Origin: Melioribacter sp.
GTDB lineage: Bacteria; Bacteroidota; Ignavibacteria; Ignavibacteriales; Melioribacteraceae
NCBI GenBank assembly: GCA_023250955.1
Contig: JAHEZQ010000022.1
Coordinates: forward strand, 4,958 to 68,957
DNA: 64,000 bases
Direction: 5' to 3'
Of the stretch, positions 4,196 through 55,992 are shown piece by piece. Numbering within the stretch: position 1 is the first letter of the stretch; each line of letters starts with the position of its first letter. Under the pieces are notes generated by a model. The model had not been told where the DNA came from. It made no database searches and worked only from the letters and a program-made list of their open reading frames with translations. Both the position numbers and the translations under genes were made by a program.

Positions 4196-4540
4196 ATGGA
4201 AAATCAATTTGGAGTAACCGGATTTATATTTAACAATGATCACCAATGGGAAAAATTTGGTGAAGGAATAAGAAGAAAAATATTGGGTTATGAAAAAAAT
4301 ATTATGCTTGTAGCTGTTGAATTTAAGAAGGACGCTGCAGCAAACATTCATAAACACCCACACACACAAATTAGTCATATAGTAAGAGGATCGTTTGAGG
4401 TCACAATAAATGACGAAAAGAGAATTATGAAAGCAGGCGATGTATTTCTTGTGCTGCCAAATCTTGATCACGGTGTTACTGCACTAGAAGAAAGTATGTT
4501 AGTTGATGTGTTTACACCTTACAGGGAAGATTTTGTTTGA
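4196..4540 (+). CDS. cupin domain protein
   Basis: 114 aa. HKHPHTQISHIV...G...LPNLDHGV resembles the two-motif cupin metal site. RBS AAGGAGA lies upstream. Confidence 0.6.
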   Translation: MENQFGVTGFIFNNDHQWEKFGEGIRRKILGYEKNIMLVAVEFKKDAAANIHKHPHTQISHIVRGSFEVTINDEKRIMKAGDVFLVLPNLDHGVTALEESMLVDVFTPYREDFV

Positions 4541-4544
4541 TTTT

Positions 4545-4835
4545 TCATTTCCTTAGTTGATCTGATATTGTATCAATCCTATCTACAATTCCCACAATTA
4601 TACTTCTTAACGGCTCACGATTTTTTAATTCAAGTATATCCATCGTACTTCTTCCTTCAGACATAACAAGTACTGTATCTCCTTCACCTGCACGTACAGT
4701 ATCTATCGCAACCATTGTTCCTGATTTAAATTTGCCGTCAGGTGAGATTGGTCTGACGATCATAATTTTTTTGTTTCTATATGAATCGTGTTTAATTGTA
4801 GAAACAATACTTCCAATTACTTTACAGAGAATCAT
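4545..4835 (-). CDS. EutN/CcmL-family microcompartment vertex (BMC-P) protein, paralog 3
   Basis: 96 aa. MILCKVIGSIVST...VAIDTVRAGEGDTVLVMSEG...IVGIVDRID matches the EutN/CcmL pattern. Its start overlaps the upstream paralog by 4 nt. Confidence 0.8.
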   Translation of the reverse strand: MILCKVIGSIVSTIKHDSYRNKKIMIVRPISPDGKFKSGTMVAIDTVRAGEGDTVLVMSEGRSTMDILELKNREPLRSIIVGIVDRIDTISDQLRK

Positions 4836-5110
4836 AATTTTTTTAAATCCATTCTATCAACCAATCCGACAATTGTAACGTCGCTTGGTATTTGTTTATC
4901 AGGGAAAGCTAAAGTTGCTTCTCCGCCGCCAACCCAGTAAACTAAATCACCTTCGCGGGAGCTAACTGTATCAACAGCAACTTGCGCCATACCGATTGGA
5001 TTTTCATCTTCATCAACGGGCTGAAGAATGTATAATGTGCAATTATTCAGTTTAGGATCTTTTACTGTTGCCCAGACTTTTCCTTGAATTCTACCGAGTT
5101 TCATAATCAC
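4832..5110 (-). CDS. EutN/CcmL-family BMC-P protein, paralog 2
   Basis: 92 aa. KLGRIQGKVWATVK...VAVDTVSSREGDLVYWVGG...IVGLVDRMD. Abuts paralog 1. Confidence 0.8.
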   Translation of the reverse strand: MIMKLGRIQGKVWATVKDPKLNNCTLYILQPVDEDENPIGMAQVAVDTVSSREGDLVYWVGGGEATLAFPDKQIPSDVTIVGLVDRMDLKKL

Positions 5111-5401
5111 TCAACTTTTTCTAAAAACTACTTTGCCTTTAAATTCTACCGAATCTACAATTGCAACGATACTCGAATCGGTTGGAACATTTGTAAGTTT
5201 CTCCGCTTGCCGTGCGGAACTTCCGCGAACAACAATAACTACTTCACCTTCTCCTGCGCCAACTGCATCAACCGCTACAACATAATTATTTGATGAACTC
5301 ATATCCGGGTTAATTAGATTAAGTAAAAGCAATTTGTAGCCGAGAAGTTTTTCCGATTTAGCAGTGGAGACAATTGTTCCTTCGACTTTTGCCAATTCCA
5401 T
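5111..5401 (-). CDS. EutN/CcmL-family BMC-P protein, paralog 1
   Basis: The ORF track gives 5111..5449. I prefer the internal ATG at 5401 (MELAKVEGTIVSTAKS...), which has GGTGA 5 nt upstream and gives the usual ~96 aa length. AVDAVGAGEGEVVIVVRGSSARQA closely resembles E. coli EutN. Confidence 0.8.
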   Translation of the reverse strand: MELAKVEGTIVSTAKSEKLLGYKLLLLNLINPDMSSSNNYVVAVDAVGAGEGEVVIVVRGSSARQAEKLTNVPTDSSIVAIVDSVEFKGKVVFRKS

Positions 5402-5614
5402 TATTTCACCGTTAATTTTTCTATCTATAATTAACTTTTTCCGATACAAAACTCAATTGTTTTGTTAACAATGAAATTCTAATGTCAAATTATATAAGAT
5501 AATCGGTTCGTAAAATTTTTGAACAAACCATTTGAATTTATAATCAAGTATAGCTTAATTTATTCTTAGGATTGGCTAGTTAATCGATTATTGTTCAACG
5601 GATGTCGGTAAAGT

Positions 5615-6448
5615 ATGCTGGTATTTTATAATGGTAAAATTTTAGATCTGGAAAGTGTAGCAATTTCTCCTTTTGACAGAGCATTTCAATTTGGGGACGG
5701 GGTATACGAGGTAATTAGATATTATCCATCAGAATTTTTCAAATCCGAGTTACATATAAATCGTTTGAAAAACAGTTTAAAAGAAGTCGGAATTCCTTAT
5801 AACAATTGCGATAGTATCGAATCAAATTTGAATGAACTTATAAAACTGAATAATCTTACTGATGAAGTTTCGATTGGCTATATACAAATTTCCAGAGGGT
5901 ATCATATTCCACGCAGACATTATTTCGATGATGGAATGGAACCGACAGTATTTATGTACGTGGAAAAATATCCGGCAAGACTAGAAGAAATGACAAATGG
6001 CGTTAAGATTGGTTTGGAAGAAGATATTAGATGGCTGCGTTGTAATATTAAAGCAACTTCACTTCTTGCAAATATTTTAACAAGAAACAAAGCAGTTAGA
6101 AAAGAACTTTCGGAAATTGTCTGGCACAGAAATGGAATTATTACGGAAGGAACACAGACAAATATCTTCTTTGTAAAAAACGGAGAATTATTTACTCCTC
6201 TGCTAAGTAATTTTATTTTACCCGGAGTTACTAGAAGAGTTGTTCTTGATTTATGCGGCAAAAATGGAATTCCTTTTACTGAAAGGAACATTACTATTGA
6301 TGAGTTAACAAAATCCGATGAAATATTTTTAACCAGTACCACAGCGGAAGTAACACCTGTAATTGAAATTGAAGGAACGAATGTTAAAGATTTGAAACCC
6401 GGTCCAATCAGCAGAATATTGCAGAAAGAGTACAGTAAATTATATTAG
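5615..6448 (+). CDS. dat: D-amino-acid (class IV) aminotransferase
   Basis: 277 aa. RWLRCNIKATSLL (PLP-Lys region as in Bacillus D-amino-acid transaminase) and EGTQTNIF. A branched-chain aminotransferase is not fully excluded. Confidence 0.7.
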   Translation: MLVFYNGKILDLESVAISPFDRAFQFGDGVYEVIRYYPSEFFKSELHINRLKNSLKEVGIPYNNCDSIESNLNELIKLNNLTDEVSIGYIQISRGYHIPRRHYFDDGMEPTVFMYVEKYPARLEEMTNGVKIGLEEDIRWLRCNIKATSLLANILTRNKAVRKELSEIVWHRNGIITEGTQTNIFFVKNGELFTPLLSNFILPGVTRRVVLDLCGKNGIPFTERNITIDELTKSDEIFLTSTTAEVTPVIEIEGTNVKDLKPGPISRILQKEYSKLY

Positions 6449-6470
6449 TAATAAATTTATCCGGCAGAAT

Positions 6471-7085
6471 ATGATAAAAAAAGAATGGATGTTTCTAAAA
6501 CAATTTAAGAAACCGTTTGATATACAAACCTACCTTAATGATTTAAAATACAATTCGGAATATGTAACAAAATCCCCAAGAAAAGTTTTTAAAGAAAAAA
6601 CTGCAAACTGTTTTGAAGGAGCTCTGTTTGCAGCGGCAGTATTAAGAACAATGGGGCATAAACCGCTTATAGTAGATATTGTTGCTGAAAATGATGATGA
6701 CCATGTAATTGCAATTTATAAACAGAATAATTGTTTCGGCGCGGTTGCGAAATCAAACACAACACTTTTGCGTTTTAGAGAGCCTGTTTACCGTAATTTG
6801 CGGGAATTAATAATGTCTTACTTCGATTTTTATTTTAACACTATAGGTGAAAAATCTTTGCGCACGTATTCTAATTCGGTTAATCTTTCCAAGTTTGATA
6901 AATACAATTGGATGACAACCGATGATGACTTGGAATTTATCGGAGATTATCTATATACAATTAAGCATCATAAGATTTTAGATTCAAAATCAGTACGTTT
7001 ATTAAACACAGCAGATAAAGAAATTGTTGATCTATGTTTCAGCGGATCAATCGAAGAAGGATTGTTTAAACCCAAGAAGAAATAG
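6471..7085 (+). CDS. hypothetical protein with transglutaminase-like Cys-His core
   Basis: 204 aa. ANCFEGALFAAAVLRTMGHKPLIV followed by DDHVIAIY resembles the transglutaminase-like cysteine protease core. By-eye motif only. Confidence 0.45.
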   Translation: MIKKEWMFLKQFKKPFDIQTYLNDLKYNSEYVTKSPRKVFKEKTANCFEGALFAAAVLRTMGHKPLIVDIVAENDDDHVIAIYKQNNCFGAVAKSNTTLLRFREPVYRNLRELIMSYFDFYFNTIGEKSLRTYSNSVNLSKFDKYNWMTTDDDLEFIGDYLYTIKHHKILDSKSVRLLNTADKEIVDLCFSGSIEEGLFKPKKK

Positions 7086-7557: not shown

Positions 7558-7952
7558 GCCGCTCCTACGGAGCTGATGTTTTATATGTTATGTTTTGTTA
7601 TCTAGATTTCGCCCCTACGGGGCTAAATGAATAAAGATTAATTAATCTATAGTCAGTGCCTTTAGGCACGACATATTGGTAGAGCCTTTAGGCACGACAT
7701 ATTGGTAGAGCCTTTAGGCACGACATATTGGTAGTGCCATAGGCATGAAATATTGGTAGTGCCATAGGCATGAAATATTGGTAGAGCCTGTAAGCACGAA
7801 AAATTGGTAATGCCGTAGACACGAAATATTGGTAGTACCGTAAGCACGAAAAATTGGTAGTGTCGTTGACATGAAATATTGGTATTACCGTAGGCACGAC
7901 ATATTGATAATAAGGTAGTCATGGCATTTAAATAGCTCCGTTAGGAGCGGCA
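7558..7952. repeat. REP-like hairpin region downstream of the RAYT-like gene
   Basis: Short GC hairpins GCTCCTACGGAGC (7562-7574), GCCCCTACGGGGC (7611-7623) and GCTCCGTTAGGAGC (7935-7948). The outermost 18-19 nt (7558-7575 tgccgctcctacggagct and 7934-7952 agctccgttaggagcggca) are reverse complements apart from one loop base, and they bracket the tandem array. Confidence 0.8.
7656..7909. repeat. tandem array of ten 25-26 bp hairpin-containing units
   Basis: Unit starts at 7656, 7682, 7708, 7734, 7759, 7784, 7810, 7835, 7860 and 7885. Consensus is GTGCC-(T)TTA/ATA/GTA-GGCAC GA(C/A)ATATTGGTA. Each unit has a 4-5 bp stem and the units abut with no spacers. Confidence 0.9.
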
Positions 7953-9950: not shown

Positions 9951-10144
9951 GTAAACAACGGCGTTGCAACTAAACCGCCGCCCAGAACAGCAATGCAACT
10001 TTGATAAACTAACGCCAATGATTTTATAAATACTTTTTTATTGCAACCTACCTTTAAGAGCAACCAACTTTTACAATGCAACTTTATTACCTAATAAATG
10101 CCGCTATGTTTAAAGCGGACGGCTTGAAGAACTTGTTAGCTGCA
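9951..10144 (-). repeat. attC-like long junction element, copy 1 (3' frame of locus A)
   Basis: In gene orientation: TGCAGCTAAC AAGTTCTTCAAGCCGTCCGCTTTAAACATAGCGGCATTT ... GGGCGGCGGTTTAGTTGCAACGCC GTTGTTTAC. Homologous to 53296-53487 (last 39 nt 34/39 identical) and more distantly to 54786-54959. Confidence 0.75.
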
Positions 10145-10780
10145 TTCACCTTTAGATTTTACTTTTTCATCAAGTAACGCTTTATAAGTCAATTTTTCCT
10201 TTATTAATTCAGCTATTATTTTTTGTGAACTTTCGTTATTTGCGGCAACATTTGATACCTCAAATTCTGCTATTCGTAGCGTTGGATTTAAACCATTTAC
10301 TGATGGTAACAAATCTCTAAAACAATCAAGATATGCCCTTTGAGCTGTTCGTCCACCAACAAAATTAAAATCAACAGTAGTTTTTGATTTTCTATACTTA
10401 TCAGCTTCAACTTTGTGCACATTACAAAGTAATTTGTATTTTTTTATATCGAAAGCCGTAGCCAGTTCATTGGGATAACAATCAAGAGTTTTTAACCGAT
10501 ATGAACTAAAATGCTGATATTCATCAAACTCAAAAATGAAATTATAATCACCACCGAAATATGCATCACAATCAAGTGACACATTTTTTTTGTTCTGATT
10601 TGCTTTTATATCACCTTTCAACGTATCGAATATTTTTGAAATAACTTGGAAATGATGTCCAAAATATTCTTCGCTATGTTTATTTATGAACCAAGGAAAA
10701 GTAATATTCGTTTGTGCTGACACATTTAATACTTTTGCGACTATTTCTGTTATTAATTTTTGTTTATCACCAACTGGCAT
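10136..10780 (-). CDS. hypothetical protein, possible restriction-endonuclease-like fold
   Basis: 214 aa. LDCDAYFGGDYNFIFEFDEYQH resembles the D...E-x-D-x-x-H arrangement of Vsr/DUF559-like nucleases (weak, by eye). GAGG RBS. Same module as the DUF2130-like gene. Confidence 0.35.
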   Translation of the reverse strand: MPVGDKQKLITEIVAKVLNVSAQTNITFPWFINKHSEEYFGHHFQVISKIFDTLKGDIKANQNKKNVSLDCDAYFGGDYNFIFEFDEYQHFSSYRLKTLDCYPNELATAFDIKKYKLLCNVHKVEADKYRKSKTTVDFNFVGGRTAQRAYLDCFRDLLPSVNGLNPTLRIAEFEVSNVAANNESSQKIIAELIKEKLTYKALLDEKVKSKGECS

Positions 10781-10844
10781 ATTACCTCAAAATTTTTAAG
10801 TGAGAATATTTTTTTAATATCACACGTTTACGATAAATTGTAGC

Positions 10845-12104
10845 CTATTCTAATTGTTTATTGCTGTCTTCAAGTTGTTTAACTTCTTGAGTAAGTGAAT
10901 CAATTGCAATTCCATCTACTCGACCCCAAAAATTAATTACACTTTGCTTGGCTTGGAAAATATGCGCTTCTCTTTCTGCAAATCTTTTCAATGATTCTTC
11001 TTTCTCTTTTTGTAGTGATTTATCCATTTTTTTAAATGCATCAAGAATTCCAATTATATGATTTTGAAAATCACTGCTTCTTAGATAGTCGTAAAGCATT
11101 TCCATTTTTGTGCCCTTATCAGTTTGCGAAGCTAAAGCCGAATATTGTTTAATTAATCCATCTCTTAATAGCGTTGTCATTATTTTAATATCATTTAAAT
11201 TACAAACCCATACTCCATCTCTGAAGTGTGTTTCTTTATTATCCGTTGGCATTGTTTGCGAAACTATTACACAAATGTCCGCCTTAACTCGACGACCATC
11301 ATCTTTGAGTTTTGAAACCCAATCTTTTCCAAATGTCTGAGTTTGTTTTCTTTCATATAGTATAATCCCACTTGGCTGACCAACATTATTTTTCACAACT
11401 TGAAGAATATCTGCACCGGTAACACCGGAAGGAACATCTTTTATCTCATCAATAGGAAAGCTATATCTTAGAAAATCTCGAAGCTCGATTTCTTTAACTT
11501 CACCAGATAATTTGTTTGAACCTTGCTCTAGTTTTGTTTGAGCATCTTCAAGTCGTTTGTTTAAATCATCAATTAGTTTATCTCGTTTTTGAAGCTCTGT
11601 CTTGCTCTTTTCAGTCTCGGTCACTTTTATTTTTTCTTTTTCTTGCAAAAGAAGTTCATTGAATTTCTTTTCGGCATCAGCCTCAATCTTATCTTTTAAT
11701 TCAGATTTCTCTCTTTGAACCCTTGCTAGTTCGCCCTTTGTTTTGTTTAGCTCTTTTACTTGTTCTGACTTTTGCTGCAATTCAGTTTCAAGCGCTTTTA
11801 GTTGTTCTGATTTTTCTTCATCAATTTGTTGACGAACAGTTTTTTCGATTTTTGTTTTTTCTATCTTGAGTTTACCTTGAACTTGTTTTTCAACAAGTTC
11901 AGTAAGTTTTTCCTTTTCTTTTTCTAATTCTTTTTTGTCGGATTCAATTTCTTGAAACTTAGATTGAAGTTCTTTCTCTTTTTTGACAATTTTTTTGTCA
12001 TAGTCTTTCTTAATTTGTGTTTCAAGTTGGTCATAAAGAACATCATTAACATTAATTGCAGCACCACATTCTGGACATTTGATAAAATTATCTTTCTCGC
12101 TCAT
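10845..12104 (-). CDS. DUF2130-like protein: CxxC knuckle, long coiled coil, C-terminal PD-(D/E)xK nuclease-like domain
   Basis: 419 aa. N-terminal KCPECG, about 200 aa of K/E-rich heptad-like sequence, then GADILQVV...GIILYERK (D...ExK). Paralog of 53513..54751. Confidence 0.7.
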   Translation of the reverse strand: MSEKDNFIKCPECGAAINVNDVLYDQLETQIKKDYDKKIVKKEKELQSKFQEIESDKKELEKEKEKLTELVEKQVQGKLKIEKTKIEKTVRQQIDEEKSEQLKALETELQQKSEQVKELNKTKGELARVQREKSELKDKIEADAEKKFNELLLQEKEKIKVTETEKSKTELQKRDKLIDDLNKRLEDAQTKLEQGSNKLSGEVKEIELRDFLRYSFPIDEIKDVPSGVTGADILQVVKNNVGQPSGIILYERKQTQTFGKDWVSKLKDDGRRVKADICVIVSQTMPTDNKETHFRDGVWVCNLNDIKIMTTLLRDGLIKQYSALASQTDKGTKMEMLYDYLRSSDFQNHIIGILDAFKKMDKSLQKEKEESLKRFAEREAHIFQAKQSVINFWGRVDGIAIDSLTQEVKQLEDSNKQLE

Positions 12105-12124
12105 AATAATGACTCCAATTTAAT

Positions 12125-12149
12125 TGCAGCTAACGGCTTGTTATAGCGC
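12125..12149. other. short module junction TGCAGCTAAC-GGCTT-GTTATAGCGC
   Basis: The right inverted-repeat arm of the DUF2130-A module and the left arm of the OLD module are separated by only 5 nt. Confidence 0.8.
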
Positions 12150-12152
12150 TAC

Positions 12153-13934
12153 TTAAGAATATATTTTAATTATCTTTTCCTTAAAACCTTGTTTAATAAC
12201 AAAATCATCCGCATCAACTTTCTTCAAAGCAAAGAATGGTTTACTTTTATTAGACTTATCAGTTATTCCAATTTCTTCTTCTATATCATTTTCTAATATG
12301 ATAGTGCTACCGTAATTTTTATCTATTGCATCTTCTATACGTTTGGAAGATTTATCAGCACTTGCAATACCATCTGGTTTTTTATCTGCTTGATGGTCTT
12401 TGTCATAAATTGCTATATAGGGTAAGCGGAATTTATTTAGTAATTCTATATATGGAACAAAAGCGTCTTTACTTCCACATTCAATCAGAGTATAATCATA
12501 CCTAAAAATATTTAGTTGTTTTGCTAAGAAAGGAATAACTGTTTTATCGGAAGGACCTTCAACTAAAACAACCTTTTTTGAGAAAAATAATTCACTTCTA
12601 TCCGGATTAAACCAGTGGACAAGATTAAAATTCTTCTTGTCATCGACATCTGAAAATAAGTCTGTTTTGCATTGAAATATTGTTGTGCCAGCGGTATCAT
12701 TTTCTTTTTTCACAATACAAATTGACTTATACATATTCATATCAATAAATGAACTTGAATGAGTGCAAAGCAATATTTGATTGTCAGAAGCAGAAAGTAA
12801 AACCAACGATGAAAACAACTCTCTTTGTGCTTGCGGATGCAAGTATAACTCTGGTTCTTCAAAAATGAAATACGCGGAATTAGACGTTTGCCTAATAGGA
12901 CGATCTTCCTCTGGCGTGGTAGTAGCATTTTCTCTTTCTTCTCTAATAATATTTGCCCAAGTTTTAATTAACGCAAATATTAGTGCCCTTTGTAAGCCGT
13001 GCCCCTTTCTTGAAATATCTGTTTTAATGCCATCATTTACCCAAACAGAAGTTCCAACTTTGAAAACATCATCAAAATTAGGTGGAGTTATTTCAACATC
13101 TATTTTAGTATTCCAAGATGATAATTCTCGTTCGAGACGTTGTTCAAATAGATTTAGTTCTGGTGGACGAGCTGTGTTTGCATTTCCATTCTCATCAATT
13201 TTATTTAATGAGTTTACCATTGTAACGATTTTATTCTTTGCGTCTTTGTAATCTTGGTTTGTCTCAGACAATTTTTGAATTACAGAAGAATATAATTGGT
13301 TAAAGAGTGTGCTTCCTTTCAGATTCAATTCTTCTGAAGCCGACTTGACGGATGGGATATAAAACACTGAACCAAATATTCCTTTTGCAACATTTTTAAG
13401 ACCCAAAAAGTTGGTAGTCTCTAATTCGTAAGAAAAAGTAATAGCAGTATGATTTTGTTCAATGTATTGGTTTATAGCATTAATAAATATTTCTTTAGTG
13501 ATTCTTCCATCGGCAGGGATTAAATTATATAAAGGTAGCTGACTTGCCGTTTCTCTTTTTAAATAGTTTGAAACATTTTCTTCTTTCAGCCATTCTTCAT
13601 TCGGATTTTGTATGTAACCATTATAAGAAAATTGACCAGATTTATTTGCGGTTTTTCTAACCCTAATTTCATTTTCAGATGTCAGATATTTCTTAAACTG
13701 ATTCTTATCAAAATCATCCAAATTAGAAAATGTTACTTCGACAAATAATTCATCAGAATTTTGGTTGAAATCAAGTTCATCATGTTTGATTTCTCCAAAG
13801 AAATACAACAAGGCGGAAAGTAGATTTGATTTACCGTGATTATTTTGACCGATGAAAATCATTACTTTTTCGTAATCAAGTTCAATCTCTCTTATAGAAC
13901 GCCAATTTTTAATATGAACATTTTTAATAACCAT
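12153..13934 (-). CDS. OLD-family nuclease (ABC-type ATPase fused to Toprim domain), P2 Old-like class 1 architecture
   Basis: 593 aa. Walker A GQNNHGKS, Walker B/D-loop FIFEEPELYLHP, H-loop CTHS. C-terminal Toprim VVLVEGPSDK ... IAIYDKDH. No helicase partner gene. Confidence 0.8.
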   Translation of the reverse strand: MVIKNVHIKNWRSIREIELDYEKVMIFIGQNNHGKSNLLSALLYFFGEIKHDELDFNQNSDELFVEVTFSNLDDFDKNQFKKYLTSENEIRVRKTANKSGQFSYNGYIQNPNEEWLKEENVSNYLKRETASQLPLYNLIPADGRITKEIFINAINQYIEQNHTAITFSYELETTNFLGLKNVAKGIFGSVFYIPSVKSASEELNLKGSTLFNQLYSSVIQKLSETNQDYKDAKNKIVTMVNSLNKIDENGNANTARPPELNLFEQRLERELSSWNTKIDVEITPPNFDDVFKVGTSVWVNDGIKTDISRKGHGLQRALIFALIKTWANIIREERENATTTPEEDRPIRQTSNSAYFIFEEPELYLHPQAQRELFSSLVLLSASDNQILLCTHSSSFIDMNMYKSICIVKKENDTAGTTIFQCKTDLFSDVDDKKNFNLVHWFNPDRSELFFSKKVVLVEGPSDKTVIPFLAKQLNIFRYDYTLIECGSKDAFVPYIELLNKFRLPYIAIYDKDHQADKKPDGIASADKSSKRIEDAIDKNYGSTIILENDIEEEIGITDKSNKSKPFFALKKVDADDFVIKQGFKEKIIKIYS

Positions 13935-13954: not shown

Positions 13955-14181
13955 GCGCTATAACTATTAATTAACCCGCCAAAAAGAAGGCGGACAAGCC
14001 CGCCAACGGATAGCATGGTGGAAGTTGTTTATCTACTTGTAAATTATTTGTTTTTATTTCATTACAAAAAGCAGAAAAGGAAAATCTATTTTCTTTGTTC
14101 TATGTATCTAAACAAAGTACCCCATTTATAGAAGCGTTTTTGGTACTAATTTAACTTAGTGTAAAAGAAAATTTTAGTCAA
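13955..14181 (-). promoter_or_regulatory. conserved 5' frame of locus A: promoter-like boxes plus structured leader
   Basis: Gene orientation: TTGACT (14181-14176), 17 nt, TAAGTT (14158-14153). The leader has stems AGTACC/GGTACT (14116-14147) and CTTTGTT/AACAAAG (14093-14117). It ends GGCGGGTTAATTAATA-GTTATAGCGC. Homologous to 55795-55992. Confidence 0.6.
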
Positions 14182-14422
14182 CCGTTTTCTTGACCCAGCC
14201 AAAAAGATCCGTCAAAAAGATGCCGGACAAGCGGCGGGCAAGCTCACCCGCCCGGATTAACCGGGCACCCTCTCCTTTGTAAGGAGAGGATGGGGTGAGG
14301 TTCTTAGTTGTAAAGACGGGATATATCCCGTTTCTACGTTTTAATTTGTTGTGTTATATCATGGAATAATTGTAATCAAAACAGATATTAAATAAGTTGT
14401 AATAACTAAAATTTAAGAAAAT

Positions 14423-48304: not shown

Positions 48305-48378
48305 GGCGAGGTAGCTCAGCTGGTTAGAGCAATGGAATCATAATCCATGTGTCGGGGGTTCGAATCCCTCCCTCGCTA
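48305..48378 (+). tRNA. tRNA with CAU anticodon (elongator Met, or Ile2 if lysidine-modified)
   Basis: Hand-folded cloverleaf: acceptor GGCGAGG/CCTCGCT (G1-U72 wobble), D arm GCTC-AGCTGGTTA-GAGC, anticodon arm ATGGA-ATCATAA-TCCAT, T arm GGGGG-TTCGAAT-CCCTC, discriminator A. No encoded CCA. Confidence 0.85.
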
Positions 48379-53295: not shown

Positions 53296-53487
53296 GTGGT
53301 AACGACGGGGTTTTTAAGCCGCCGCTCATAACTGCAATGCCGCTTTGAAAAACCTACGCCAATAATTATTTACAAATGTGTTTTGTCCACTATATTCAAA
53401 AAGCAACTAAATTTTGCAGAGCTACTTTATAACAACACAAATGCCGCAATGTTTAAAGCGGACGCCTTGGAAAACTGGTTATACCGC
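53296..53487 (-). repeat. attC-like long junction element, copy 2 (3' frame of locus B)
   Basis: Gene orientation: GCGGTATAAC CAGTTTTCCAAGGCGTCCGCTTTAAACATTGCGGCATTT ... GAGCGGCGGCTTAAAAACCCCGTC GTTACCAC. Homologous to 9951-10144. Confidence 0.75.
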
Positions 53488-53512: not shown

Positions 53513-54751
53513 TCATTTTTCCAATTCTTCGATTCTAATAAATTTACTTTTTTCAGTAAGTAACAACTTAGATTTTTGTTCAATTCTGTTTTGAATTAAG
53601 TCCTTAAGTTTATAGTCAATTATACCAATATCGGAAAATAGATCACGATAAATATGATAACGTTTCTCCCACGTCTTCTTGTGAGATGAAATTTCCACTT
53701 TGAGATCTCTTCCTAGTTCCATTAGCTGACCAGCGACATCATTCATTTTATTGTTATAATCATTGCTTGATAGATAATCATAAACACGTTGAACAGCTTT
53801 TTGTTTTGCCTCGTTTGACATTTTCAGCAATGCTATTTTTACAAGACTTTCACGGAGAGTATAAGTTATTGGTTCAAGACTTACTGGACTTATAACAAAG
53901 ACGGTATTTTCCACAAAGTAATATTGTTTCTTTGAAGGGAATGCATTTGTAACCAATATTGCAAAATCAGCTTGGCGTATTTTGCGAGCTTCTTTAGCTT
54001 GTTCGATATGATTTTTGCTAAATGTTTTTACTTTTTTGCATTCGTAGACAATTTTCCCAATTTCTTTTTCTTGTTCGAGAACTATCTGAATAATGTCGCC
54101 AGCTTTTCCAGGATGTTCAAATTTGTCTTGGGGAAAAAGCTCCTTGAGCTTTGCAAGAAGTTTATCTTCTTCTAATAAACCTTCAATTTGTGGAGTTATA
54201 CCTTTCTCTATTTGCTCTTTCAGTTTTTTGATTTCGTCATTAGCTTGTTCATATTTCTTAGCAGATACTTTGAGACTGTTTTCGAGCTGAGACATTTTGT
54301 TTTTAGTTTTTTTAAGGTCGTCTTGCTGCTTCTTGAATTCTTTTTTCTGAGTCTCAACTCCTTTATCAACTCCTTTTTTAATCTCAGTCTTCAATTTATG
54401 GTTGAAAGATTTTTCTAATTGATTTCGCTGATTTTTCATTTGCAACGAAGCTTTCTTTGCTTGTTCAGTCAAAATGCGTTTAGAATCACGCAATAATTTT
54501 GCTTGTTGTTTCTTAAATTCATTCGCTTGTCCCTTAACTTGATCTTTATAAACTTTTTCTTGCTCTTTAAGTTTCTTCCTCTCGGCTTCCAACTTCTTTT
54601 TATTAAGTTGTTCTTGTGCTTTCATTTTCTTCTGTTCAGCTACAAGATGTTTTATATGTTCTTGTTTGTCTTTCCACAAGCCAAGAGCTTTATCATATTC
54701 AGTTTCTGTCAAAGGTTTTCCACAAACTGGACACTTTAATGTTCGTTCCAT
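53513..54751 (-). CDS. DUF2130-like protein (CxxC knuckle, coiled coil, PD-(D/E)xK-like C-terminal domain), paralog B
   Basis: 412 aa. KCPVCG, long K/E/Q-rich coiled coil, GDIIQIV...GKIVYECK (D...ExK). AAGGAG RBS. Confidence 0.7.
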   Translation of the reverse strand: MERTLKCPVCGKPLTETEYDKALGLWKDKQEHIKHLVAEQKKMKAQEQLNKKKLEAERKKLKEQEKVYKDQVKGQANEFKKQQAKLLRDSKRILTEQAKKASLQMKNQRNQLEKSFNHKLKTEIKKGVDKGVETQKKEFKKQQDDLKKTKNKMSQLENSLKVSAKKYEQANDEIKKLKEQIEKGITPQIEGLLEEDKLLAKLKELFPQDKFEHPGKAGDIIQIVLEQEKEIGKIVYECKKVKTFSKNHIEQAKEARKIRQADFAILVTNAFPSKKQYYFVENTVFVISPVSLEPITYTLRESLVKIALLKMSNEAKQKAVQRVYDYLSSNDYNNKMNDVAGQLMELGRDLKVEISSHKKTWEKRYHIYRDLFSDIGIIDYKLKDLIQNRIEQKSKLLLTEKSKFIRIEELEK

Positions 54752-54785: not shown

Positions 54786-54959
54786 GCGGTATAACGGCGT
54801 TACGGTTAAGCGGACGCCACGAAGTGTCGGATACCAACAACATGATTTATTGTTTATAAATTTCATTTGCACAAATGTCGAACAAAAACCAAATCAACTA
54901 AAACTACAAATACCACGACCGACTACAGCGTTCCGCATGAGACGCTTGTTATACACAAA
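54786..54959 (-). repeat. attC-like long junction element, copy 3 (between the two modules of locus B, diverged)
   Basis: Gene orientation: TTTGTGTATAAC AAGCGTCTCATGCGGAACGC ... GGCGTCCGCTTAACCGTAACGCC GTTATACCGC. It shares end motifs and central blocks (caaatgt, caactaaa) with copies 1 and 2. Confidence 0.65.
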
Positions 54960-54964
54960 CTCAA

Positions 54965-55786
54965 TTAACTATTTGCATATTCAACACACTTTGCTCTTAA
55001 TTCTGATATTTCATTAAGTGCTACTGGATTTTTGGCGAGATTAATTAATGGAAGATATTTTCTAATTAGATAACTCTCCATATTCTCAAAATCACCAGCA
55101 AATTCTATCCAGTTAACTACTAAGTTTGTATTAATCCAGTTGATAATGGTGGATTCGTTTCCTTTGTTGAACTTATAATTACGTTTGTTAGAATGGTTTT
55201 TCAATGAACCTTTTATTGGAAGGAAACCTAAAATAGCACCAAGGCTTCTAAAAAACGTTCCGTGACCCCTCGCCCTTAATTCTTGATTTAAAAAACGAGT
55301 ATTTAGACTTTCTGTCGCAATACCAATGTAAATGATATTGTGATTCCGTTTTTTAAGATGTTCGTTAAATGGGGCGGGAATTGAATCTTTATTTTTAATT
55401 CTGATACAATATATTCCAGGAACAGAGGGCACTTTTTCATCAATAGTATTTGCATCAATATAGTTGTCGGAATTAAATAAATATTTTTCCAGCTCTTTTG
55501 AATCAACAGAATTTTGAAAATCAACTTTGGGAGGATGTTCATTGATTAATTGAACAGGTGAATTTTTAGATAATCCAGAAATAACTTTTAAAATGACAAT
55601 ATTTCCTTTGCGATCAAATAAATGTGAATATTTTCTAGTTCTTCCGTGAATTTGAAATGCTGTAATTAAAGAGCCATCTTTCTTTTCATACCACTTACTT
55701 TTATTTAGTAGGTCTGCAATTTTTTGTGTGGTCATCGAGTTTTTATTCTCAGCTAATACTTTTATTATTGCCTCGTGAAGTGTCAT
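54965..55786 (-). CDS. HARE-HTH-like winged-helix domain fused to GIY-YIG-like nuclease domain
   Basis: 273 aa from ATG 55786 (RBS AAGGAAG); see the rejected 55858 start. N-terminus MTLHEAIIKVLAENKNSMTTQKIADLL...HLFDRKGNIVIL resembles HARE-HTH. C-terminus VPGIYCIRI...NIIYIGIA...R...E...N resembles GIY-YIG. Confidence 0.6.
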   Translation of the reverse strand: MTLHEAIIKVLAENKNSMTTQKIADLLNKSKWYEKKDGSLITAFQIHGRTRKYSHLFDRKGNIVILKVISGLSKNSPVQLINEHPPKVDFQNSVDSKELEKYLFNSDNYIDANTIDEKVPSVPGIYCIRIKNKDSIPAPFNEHLKKRNHNIIYIGIATESLNTRFLNQELRARGHGTFFRSLGAILGFLPIKGSLKNHSNKRNYKFNKGNESTIINWINTNLVVNWIEFAGDFENMESYLIRKYLPLINLAKNPVALNEISELRAKCVEYANS

Positions 55787-55794
55787 ATTCTTCC

Positions 55795-55992
55795 TTTGTG
55801 TATAACTATTAATTAGCCCGCAGCAGACTTCAACTCTTGGAATGTTATCTACCAACATTTATTTTGTTTTAATTAATTTGCAGACAGAAAAGGAAATCTA
55901 TTTTCTTTGTTCATATCTTCAAACAAAGTACCCCAATTATAGAAGCATTTTTGGTACTATCTCAACTTAGCTTAAAAGGAAATTGATGTCAA
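55795..55992 (-). promoter_or_regulatory. conserved 5' frame of locus B: promoter-like boxes plus structured leader
   Basis: Gene orientation: TTGACA (55992-55987), 17 nt, TAAGTT (55969-55964). Same two stems as in locus A. It ends GCGGGCTAATTAATA-GTTATACACAAA. Confidence 0.6.

Follow-up and report, generated by a model that had tools for sequence, protein, structure and literature searches.

Three repeated elements of a Melioribacter contig as very probable attC sites of a lineage-specific family of Ignavibacteriota chromosomal integrons

Introduction

Integrons of Ignavibacteriae, including complete ones, have already been reported by the authors of IntegronFinder (PMC9024848), and attC sites lying apart from any integrase, either as clusters (CALIN) or as single sites (SALIN), have also been described (PMC9024848; bioRxiv 10.1101/2022.09.11.507474). 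attC sites are more alike within than between integrons, and their variable centre spans 20–100 nt (Cury et al. 2016). In this work we analysed a stretch of 64,000 nt from Melioribacter sp. (contig JAHEZQ010000022.1 of GenBank assembly GCA_023250955.1, positions 4,958 to 68,957 of the forward strand), hereafter called the window, in which a non-coding element with GC-rich arms and an AT-rich centre is present three times. Our data indicate that these elements are very probably integron attC sites, members of a lineage-specific family of Ignavibacteriota chromosomal integrons. Since both Ignavibacteriae integrons and integrase-less attC sites had been reported, the finding belongs to a known kind; the family is distinctive by the length of its sites, by integrase-less platforms headed by an attI-like site and by its nuclease-type cargo.

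The family resembles sedentary chromosomal integrons, for example the Vibrio cholerae repeats, in having lineage-specific, mutually similar attC sites in long same-orientation arrays, as well as cassettes mostly of unknown function. Its sites are nevertheless longer than the attC of Vibrio, which measure ∼120–130 nt, and, unlike in Vibrio, a single array combines several subfamilies differing in length and sequence. The integrase gene is not divergent from the cassettes, as it is in Vibrio or class 1 integrons, but lies upstream of them and co-oriented. Such a same-orientation arrangement of intI and cassettes has been described for Treponema denticola and for some Chlorobi and Planctomycetes, and the Ignavibacteriota loci resemble the Treponema denticola type in this respect in all six complete cases.

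The three elements of the window are distributed over two islands lying between housekeeping genes. Island B, with two attC 1.3 kb apart and no intI in the 64 kb, fits the description of a CALIN, while island A, with one attC and likewise no intI in the window, fits that of a SALIN. Both islands are, in addition, headed by an attI-like site and by a common promoter-like leader, here called D5, features that are not part of these definitions.

The three elements of the window

Each copy follows a minus-strand gene and begins 0–30 nt past its stop codon. The coordinates below run, in gene orientation, from the first base of the 5' core (R'') to the last base of the 3' core (R').

9953..10141, minus strand: attC copy 1, the only attC of island A; R'' AGCTAAC, R' GTTGTTT (hybrid)
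53297..53484, minus strand: attC copy 2, the last attC of island B, belonging to the DUF2130 cassette
54789..54954, minus strand: attC copy 3, of the short (164–167 nt) subfamily, between the GIY-YIG and DUF2130 cassettes

The initial annotation of this DNA had located the copies to within 2–5 nt of these limits, and all the motifs that it quoted are present. A profile search of the window with all filters off recovered the three copies at E = 1e-48, 5e-48 and 6e-26; no fourth copy was detected in the 64 kb, where the next best profile match has E = 0.37. Copies 1 and 2 are ∼80% identical, and copy 3 is a shorter relative that has mainly the arms in common with them. The spacing of the conserved blocks is identical in all three (TAAC-MAG-N5-CAWGSSGNNCGCT, then 109–132 nt, then GCGKCSGYTTA-N7-CGYCGTT). 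Each copy opens with TAAC followed by AAG or CAG, continues with a GC-rich segment (CAAGCCGTCCGC, CAAGGCGTCCGC or CATGCGGAACGC), carries a second one near the other end (GGGCGGCGGTTTAG, GCGGCGGCTTAAA or GGCGTCCGCTTAAC), and finishes in ...CGCC-GTTGTTT, ...CGTC-GTTACCA or ...CGCC-GTTATAC for copies 1 to 3. As had been proposed from the letters alone, the two segments can pair leaving one base unpaired (CCG-T-CCGC with GCGG-CGG; GCGGA-A-CGC with GCG-TCCGC), and compensatory changes accompany this pairing across 112 members of the family.

The R'' of copy 1 holds the TAA stop codon of the DUF7255 gene. In copy 3, R'' (GTATAAC) and R' (GTTATAC) are perfect complements. Copy 2 has the same R'' and a hybrid R', GTTACCA, to which the cassette contributes only the G. 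The odd cores GTTGTTT and GTTACCA arise because copies 1 and 2 are each the last attC of their array, so that the bases after G|TT come from the downstream sequence. The earlier remark that the core deviates from the classical GTTRRRY therefore applies only to these terminal sites, the cores of the family being canonical.

Conserved arms, bulged bases and covariation

The counts of cores, bulges and covariation are based on an alignment (A2) of 112 full-length family copies. The consensus cores are RYMTAAC for R'' and GTTAKRY for R', most commonly in the forms GCCTAAC/GTATAAC and GTTAGGC/GTTATAC, and none of the 112 copies departs from AAC or GTT. Compared with the classical boxes, RYYYAAC and GTTRRRY, the family deviates slightly at the fifth base of R', where T is frequent in place of R. 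On the top strand, R'' is followed by a spacer of 2 nt, a first helix strand (H1, 6 bp), a bulged C, a second helix strand (H2, 6 bp, typically AAGCCG:CGGCTT), a bulged A and a third one (H3, 4 bp or more); then come an AT-rich variable centre of ∼105–168 nt, the complementary arm, a 6-nt spacer (AACGCC) and R'. At the first bulge 110 of 112 copies have C and at the second 102 of 112 have A, which correspond to G and T on the bottom strand.

The three helices are paired at 87.8%, 96.1% and 98.4%, and both partners have changed in a compensatory manner at 12 of the 16 pairs. Over the whole structure, 89.4% of the aligned base pairs are standard ones against 77.6% with shuffled partners, pairs changed on both sides number 356 instances against 129 in the shuffles, and the covariation score reaches 0.331, compared with 0.120 after shuffling and ≤0.075 when the 3' partners are slid by 1–3 columns. 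None of 500 shuffles attained the observed pairing and covariation values; the three helices thus covary strongly. The outer three pairs of the R boxes form only about half the time, which is no surprise given that everything past G|TT is contributed by the following cassette. H1 has 53 A.C mismatches but only 17 G.T pairs when read on the top strand; since an A.C on this strand is a G.T on the bottom one, this excess mildly favours folding of the bottom strand. By analogy with the attC sites that have been studied, the bottom strand would fold on itself, the bulged G and T would mark the strand for the integrase, and IntI would cut between A and C of AAC, that is at G|TT on the top strand, leading to excision of the cassette or to its insertion at attI.

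The R''-to-R' length falls into three classes of 164–167 nt (10 copies), 185–196 nt (95 copies) and 216–227 nt (7 copies). The centre is conserved in sequence within subfamilies, though the consensus fold for the main subfamily gave only weak helices that barely covary (covariation term −0.96 kcal/mol), and for that reason we claim no structure for it. The members of the longest class differ from the main class by an extra centre insert of ∼36 nt, itself a hairpin, for example GCAAACTGCGCTTACGATGAAAGTTAAGCACAGTTTGC. They are found, in loci numbered with the prefix L, at the following positions.

L042, 4713–4938 and 7230–7455: attC copies of 216–227 nt
L007, 1017–1243: attC copy of 216–227 nt
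L002, 3239–3462: attC copy of 216–227 nt
L020, 1676–1900: attC copy of 216–227 nt
L022, 118–342: attC copy of 216–227 nt
L017, 1655–1870: attC copy of 216–227 nt

Relationship to a classical attC site

The 60-nt attC of aadA1 was confirmed immediately behind this gene, at 100% identity, in R100 as well as in >1900 other plasmids. A covariance model was then derived from the arms of the relatives (104 distinct sequences), with the window copies left out and the centre replaced by an artificial 4-nt loop. This arms model matches the aadA1 attC of R100 (L126, 3001–3060) and of pSE08 (L127, 6001–6060) on the correct strand and over all 60 model positions (32.5 bits, E = 7e-7), and in the alignment the two bulges and the AAGCCG-A motif coincide. 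The dfrA1 attC in the same plasmid locus was missed. With its 4-nt loop the model is unable to span centres of 105–130 nt and recovers the window copies as fragments only, so it is useful only for such a cross-test on short classical attC. The match to aadA1 at this E-value speaks against the earlier suggestion of a distinct class of recombination site.

Compared side by side, the aadA1 attC ends in GTCTAAC...GTTAGAT, like the RYMTAAC...GTTAKRY of the family, and the two have 5' arms of the same length and nearly the same sequence (TAAC-AATTCGTT-C-AAGCCG-A-CGCC and TAAC-AAGTTCTT-C-AAGCCG-A-CCGC, respectively), and in both of them C and A are bulged on the top strand. They differ in size, since the aadA1 site has 60 nt and a centre of few bases and the family 164–227 nt with an AT-rich centre of ∼105–168 nt, and also in the helix next to the spacer, which has six pairs in the family and three in aadA1; hence the 3' arm of the family is 3 nt longer and its 5' spacer has only 2 nt. 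From plasmids of Gammaproteobacteria to a distant phylum, the arm architecture of attC and both its bulges are thus conserved almost base for base, whereas the centre can reach ∼170 nt.

Arrays, integrases and putative attI sites in Ignavibacteriota

A two-ended degenerate pattern run over a collection of species-representative genomes gave 48 matches in 45 genome loci, nearly all from Ignavibacteriota (Ignavibacteria, Melioribacter, Stygiobacter, Kapabacteria), and no match in viral contigs. The profile derived from these matches detected 135 copies in the 45 loci (138 hits with the three of the window). Within any one of the 45 loci all copies have the same orientation and lie at the 3' ends of open reading frames (ORFs); locus L033 contains 8 copies in 8 kb, and L036 and L023 contain 7 each. 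Between the sites there are 87 intervals, of median length 870 nt, and for 81 of these the longest ORF runs in the same direction as the sites. Sites that all point one way, with one ORF of matching direction in each interval, are what an integron cassette array consists of.

When the loci were searched by tblastn with IntI1, which served as a probe only, full-length homologues with 43–48% identity were found in L002, L003, L005, L007, L011 and L032. In all six loci the array follows directly on the integrase gene and has the same orientation. The two integrase proteins tested, those of L005 and L007, scored 413 and 423 bits on the NCBIfam model for integron integrases, TIGR02249 (cut-off 265). 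All six loci moreover share a conserved site, K-TAATA-GTTAKRY (TAATAGTTA), located 100–200 nt downstream of the integrase stop codon, with the first cassette ORF beginning a few tens of bases further on; by its position and conservation this site is the putative attI. Locus L006 keeps the spacer between integrase and attI typical of L003, L011 and L032, and no integrase was detectable beside it.

A cassette in two contexts

Further support for cassette behaviour comes from the DUF2130 protein of island B, which is 95% identical to a homologue in L033, a Melioribacter genome bin. At the DNA level, positions 54808–53300 of the window are 88.4% identical to L033 2622–4130 (1512 nt), a stretch that sits in L033 between two attC in the middle of the eight-site array. 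The homology starts at ...AACGCCG|TTATACCGC, within the 3' end of the upstream attC (G|TTATACC), and runs as far as the G|TT of the attC that follows the gene. Window and L033 differ in the subfamily to which the body of the upstream attC belongs, and past the downstream GTT their sequences show no relationship. The limits of the cassette in the window are accordingly the TT of the R' of copy 3 (54794) and the G of the R' of copy 2 (53303). Exchange of a unit made of a gene and its attC at the canonical crossover point G|TT would produce this pattern.

Taken together, the arrays, the adjoining integrases, the attI-like sites, the covariation, the two bulged bases and the cassette found in two contexts bear out the idea, put forward from the window alone, of attC-like sites of a chromosomal integron.

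Cargo and leader sequences of the two islands

From D5 downwards, island A (14181 down to 9953) consists of D5, attI-like site, an OLD gene, a DUF2130 gene, a DUF7255 gene and attC copy 1. Island B (55992 down to 53297) consists of D5, attI-like site, a GIY-YIG_2 gene, copy 3, a DUF2130 gene and copy 2. The flanks are housekeeping genes, namely those for an SSF symporter and galK in the case of island A and those for an AhpC-like protein and DUF2461 in the case of island B.

14047..14181, minus strand: D5 copy A, 81% identical to copy B over 135 nt
13958..13983, minus strand: attI-like site of island A, TTTGGCGGGTTAATTAATA-GTTATAG (GGCGGGTTAATTAATA-GTTATAG), ∼27 nt upstream of the OLD start
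10136..13934, minus strand: cargo of island A, three genes with no attC between them (Pfam, PADLOC)
12153–13934, minus strand: OLD-family ATPase/TOPRIM nuclease, best PADLOC model Old, E = 1e-71
10845–12104, minus strand: DUF2130 gene of island A (Pfam/PADLOC scans)
10136–10780, minus strand: DUF7255 gene of island A (Pfam/PADLOC scans)
55863..55992, minus strand: D5 copy B, promoter-like conserved region, best match TTGAGA-18-TATAAT at 55965–55936
55800..55825, minus strand: attI-like site of island B, TGCTGCGGGCTAATTAATA-GTTATAC (GCGGGCTAATTAATA-GTTATAC), 17 nt upstream of the GIY-YIG start
54965..55786, minus strand: GIY-YIG_2 nuclease, cassette 1 of island B, Pfam PF20815, HARE-HTH N-terminus
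53513..54751, minus strand: DUF2130 gene, cassette 2 of island B, 412 aa, Pfam PF09903

The true start of the GIY-YIG protein is probably Met25 of a 297-aa ORF (55786), because the attI-like site sits inside the upstream extension of this ORF; the resulting protein of 273 aa agrees with the 273-aa gene call. The DUF2130 proteins of the two islands are only 25% identical. The cargo presumably consists of anti-phage defence genes, and in the PADLOC search the DUF2130, DUF7255 and GIY-YIG proteins matched no defence model, apart from weak coiled-coil hits. On this reading the islands add further examples of defence-type genes as integron cassettes.

D5 runs on into the attI-like site, the two making up an uninterrupted stretch of ∼200 nt that is homologous between the two islands. 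D5 was not found in the 45 integron loci, it has neither an Rfam match nor a significant fold, and a scan for sigma-70-type promoters gave overall no more sites than chance. A variant of the attI-like site, CTGGCGGRTTAATTAATAGTTA, also heads the attC-bearing loci L027 and L031, in whose fetched DNA no integrase is present, and L031 has ∼100 nt of upstream sequence in common with the platforms of the window. Directly upstream of the D5 of island A (window 14200–14330, minus strand) lies a set of GC-rich nested hairpins, CCTCACCC ... CCTCTCC-loop-GGAGAGG ... CCCGG-loop-CCGGG ... GGGTGAG; the same nested-hairpin unit precedes D5 in L047 as well, at ∼4400–4466.

Origin of the islands

The gap occupied by island B could be followed in 80 metagenomic loci with an AhpC orthologue, in most of which the DUF2461 gene lies ∼30 nt away with nothing inserted. 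Among the closest relatives (88–93% AhpC identity), the gap measures 343 nt and holds a small ORF in L049, measures 1.07 kb and holds an interrupted D5 in L047, and carries attC-bearing inserts in L048, L050 and L051. In L053 it amounts to 3 kb, with D5, a degenerate attI-like site (TAATTAATAATTATCC, 7040–7060) and then genes for a DNA methylase and a BsoBI-family restriction endonuclease (4548–6969), and no attC was found there. In L052 it extends over 5 kb, with D5, the left half only of an attI-like site, then peptidase and transporter genes, again without attC. Judging from these comparisons, the gap between the AhpC and DUF2461 genes is a hotspot. D5 occurs beside the DUF2461 gene in three related metagenomic contigs, whether or not attC-bearing cassettes accompany it, at the following positions.

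L047, 4181–4393: D5
L052, 11366–11486: D5
L053, 7092–7213: D5

The D5 of L047 is interrupted (∼4233–4324, minus strand) by an insert of ∼190 nt with inverted-repeat ends, GGGGGTGTGAGA ... TCTCACACCCCC, which looks like a small non-autonomous transposon.

Given that in L052 and L053 the unit of D5 and attI persists with an altered or missing GTT core and no attC, the platform seems to be older than the present cassettes. We favour a scenario in which an IntI whose gene lies elsewhere or has meanwhile disappeared would have loaded both arrays of the window at their attI-like sites, and in which D5 would drive the expression of both. A more far-reaching proposal is that D5 and the attI-like site constitute a stand-alone docking platform without an integrase of its own, placed at conserved hotspots and supplied in trans, by an IntI encoded at another locus, with cassettes that in this case are mostly nuclease-type defence genes. 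At least two loci of the source genome have such a unit, and L027 and L031 contain the same type of platform; even so, we regard this proposal as tentative and rather doubtful. If it were true, the Ignavibacteriota integron would be spread over several expression sites as a distributed system, instead of forming a single array linked to its integrase. The data also raise the question of whether attI platforms without an integrase function.

Alternatively, the sites could be genuine attC and the islands could derive from circular cassettes inserted at genomic 5'-GWT-3' (attC × attG), with no attI platform involved, a mechanism that is documented together with the abundance of the isolated cassettes that it leaves (bioRxiv 10.1101/2022.09.11.507474). 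Both terminal R' boxes consist of G|TT followed by unrelated sequence (GTTGTTT, GTTACCA), as a G|WT genomic junction would, so that insertion at attG explains the odd terminal cores equally well as loading at attI; likewise, the short distance between the AhpC and DUF2461 genes in most relatives indicates that island B is an insertion there. However, both islands start at an attI-like site matching that of six complete integrons and not at an arbitrary GWT, and the D5-attI unit occupies the same gap in L052 and L053 in the absence of attC. An exact empty site from a near-identical genome, on which the junctions could be read, was not found for either island, all the closest relatives of the AhpC–DUF2461 gap carrying other insertions. 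In view of these data we consider insertion at attG improbable as the origin of the islands, and loading at the attI-like sites remains our preferred explanation.

Identity of the elements

Several observations weigh against the identification of the three elements as attC sites. No integrase homologue was detected in the 64-kb window by tblastn with IntI1 and two Ignavibacteriota IntI at E ≤ 1. Island A, with three genes ahead of one attC, is an atypical cassette. Both the total length of 164–227 nt and the centre of ∼105–168 nt are beyond the usual ranges of attC, as the initial annotation had already pointed out for the window copies with respect to a range of 57–141 nt; this range is descriptive and reflects no mechanistic requirement. 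Folding of the three copies as single-stranded DNA, on both strands, gave energies no better than those of shuffled sequences (z −0.5 to +1.25), so that the check by single-strand folding was not distinctive; the pairing of the arms does appear in some minimum-energy structures, whose stability is unremarkable. Finally, copies 1 and 2 have T at the second bulge, where the family has A and only 3 of 112 members have T, and in copy 2 one H2 pair is broken relative to its counterpart in L033, features which may reflect decay or relaxed selection.

The elements could instead function mainly at the RNA level, as structured 3' ends of transcripts (terminators, stabilisers or small RNAs), and their likeness to attC would then be incidental. 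The element always lies just past a stop codon and would consequently be transcribed with the gene, and the sequence conservation of the long centre within subfamilies could be read in the same way. Scans of the window and of the elements against Rfam, which does not include attC, at gathering scores and at E ≤ 10, gave nothing relevant at any threshold, no match with E below ∼3 overlapping the elements. In addition, there is no T-run after the stems, the folding energies are no better than those of shuffles on either strand, and the centre has the weak, barely covarying consensus fold already described. The excess of A.C over G.T in H1 on the transcribed strand moreover favours pairing of the opposite strand, that is of DNA. 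We therefore reject the RNA interpretation, which had been raised in the initial annotation and which we now deem very unlikely. That the elements might be miniature inverted-repeat transposable elements (MITEs) or REP-like repeats with terminal inverted repeats of their own, unrelated to the borders of gene modules, is effectively refuted: they are indeed short, non-coding, repeated and intergenic, with ends that are inverted repeats (TAAC...GTTA), but every copy is at the 3' end of an ORF in one orientation per locus, no target-site duplications flank the copies, the arrays adjoin an integron integrase, the arms vary by compensatory change where transposase-bound ends would keep their sequence, and the mobile unit is a gene plus a site, breaking at G|TT.

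Implications and further observations

The identification of the elements as attC sites provides a concrete model of the Ignavibacteriota site, comprising a consensus, a secondary structure, three length classes and a candidate attI, which can be used for annotating cassettes in metagenome-assembled genomes. The default upper attC size in IntegronFinder is 200 nt, a limit that the sites of 216–227 nt would exceed.

Some of the loci collected contain features of interest in themselves. The second cassette of the complete Ignavibacteria integron of L007 (211–996, minus strand) encodes a protein similar to lincosamide nucleotidyltransferases, whose best model is Lnu(H) (NF040958, 419.6 bits, below the cut-off of 540 bits). 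Locus L016 (JBBABA010000040.1, 1–3388) is a 3.4-kb contig labelled as a Thermoplasmata archaeon with five attC of the Ignavibacteriota type. One of these has its downstream junction (GTTAGGTTTATAAACAAA) in common with L019, a Melioribacteraceae bin from the same sample, and the contig is probably misbinned; such a likely binning error bears on claims of integrons in Archaea.

In the window itself, a tandem array at 7655–7906 comprises 9.9 copies of a 25-nt unit, AGTGCCGTAGGCACGAAATATTGGT, with 83% matches; the unit contains a short palindrome, GTGCC..GGCAC, and the array occupies intergenic DNA in front of the SSF symporter gene. The sole Rfam hit of the window at gathering score is a tRNA gene (48305–48378, 68 bits), which adjoins neither island.

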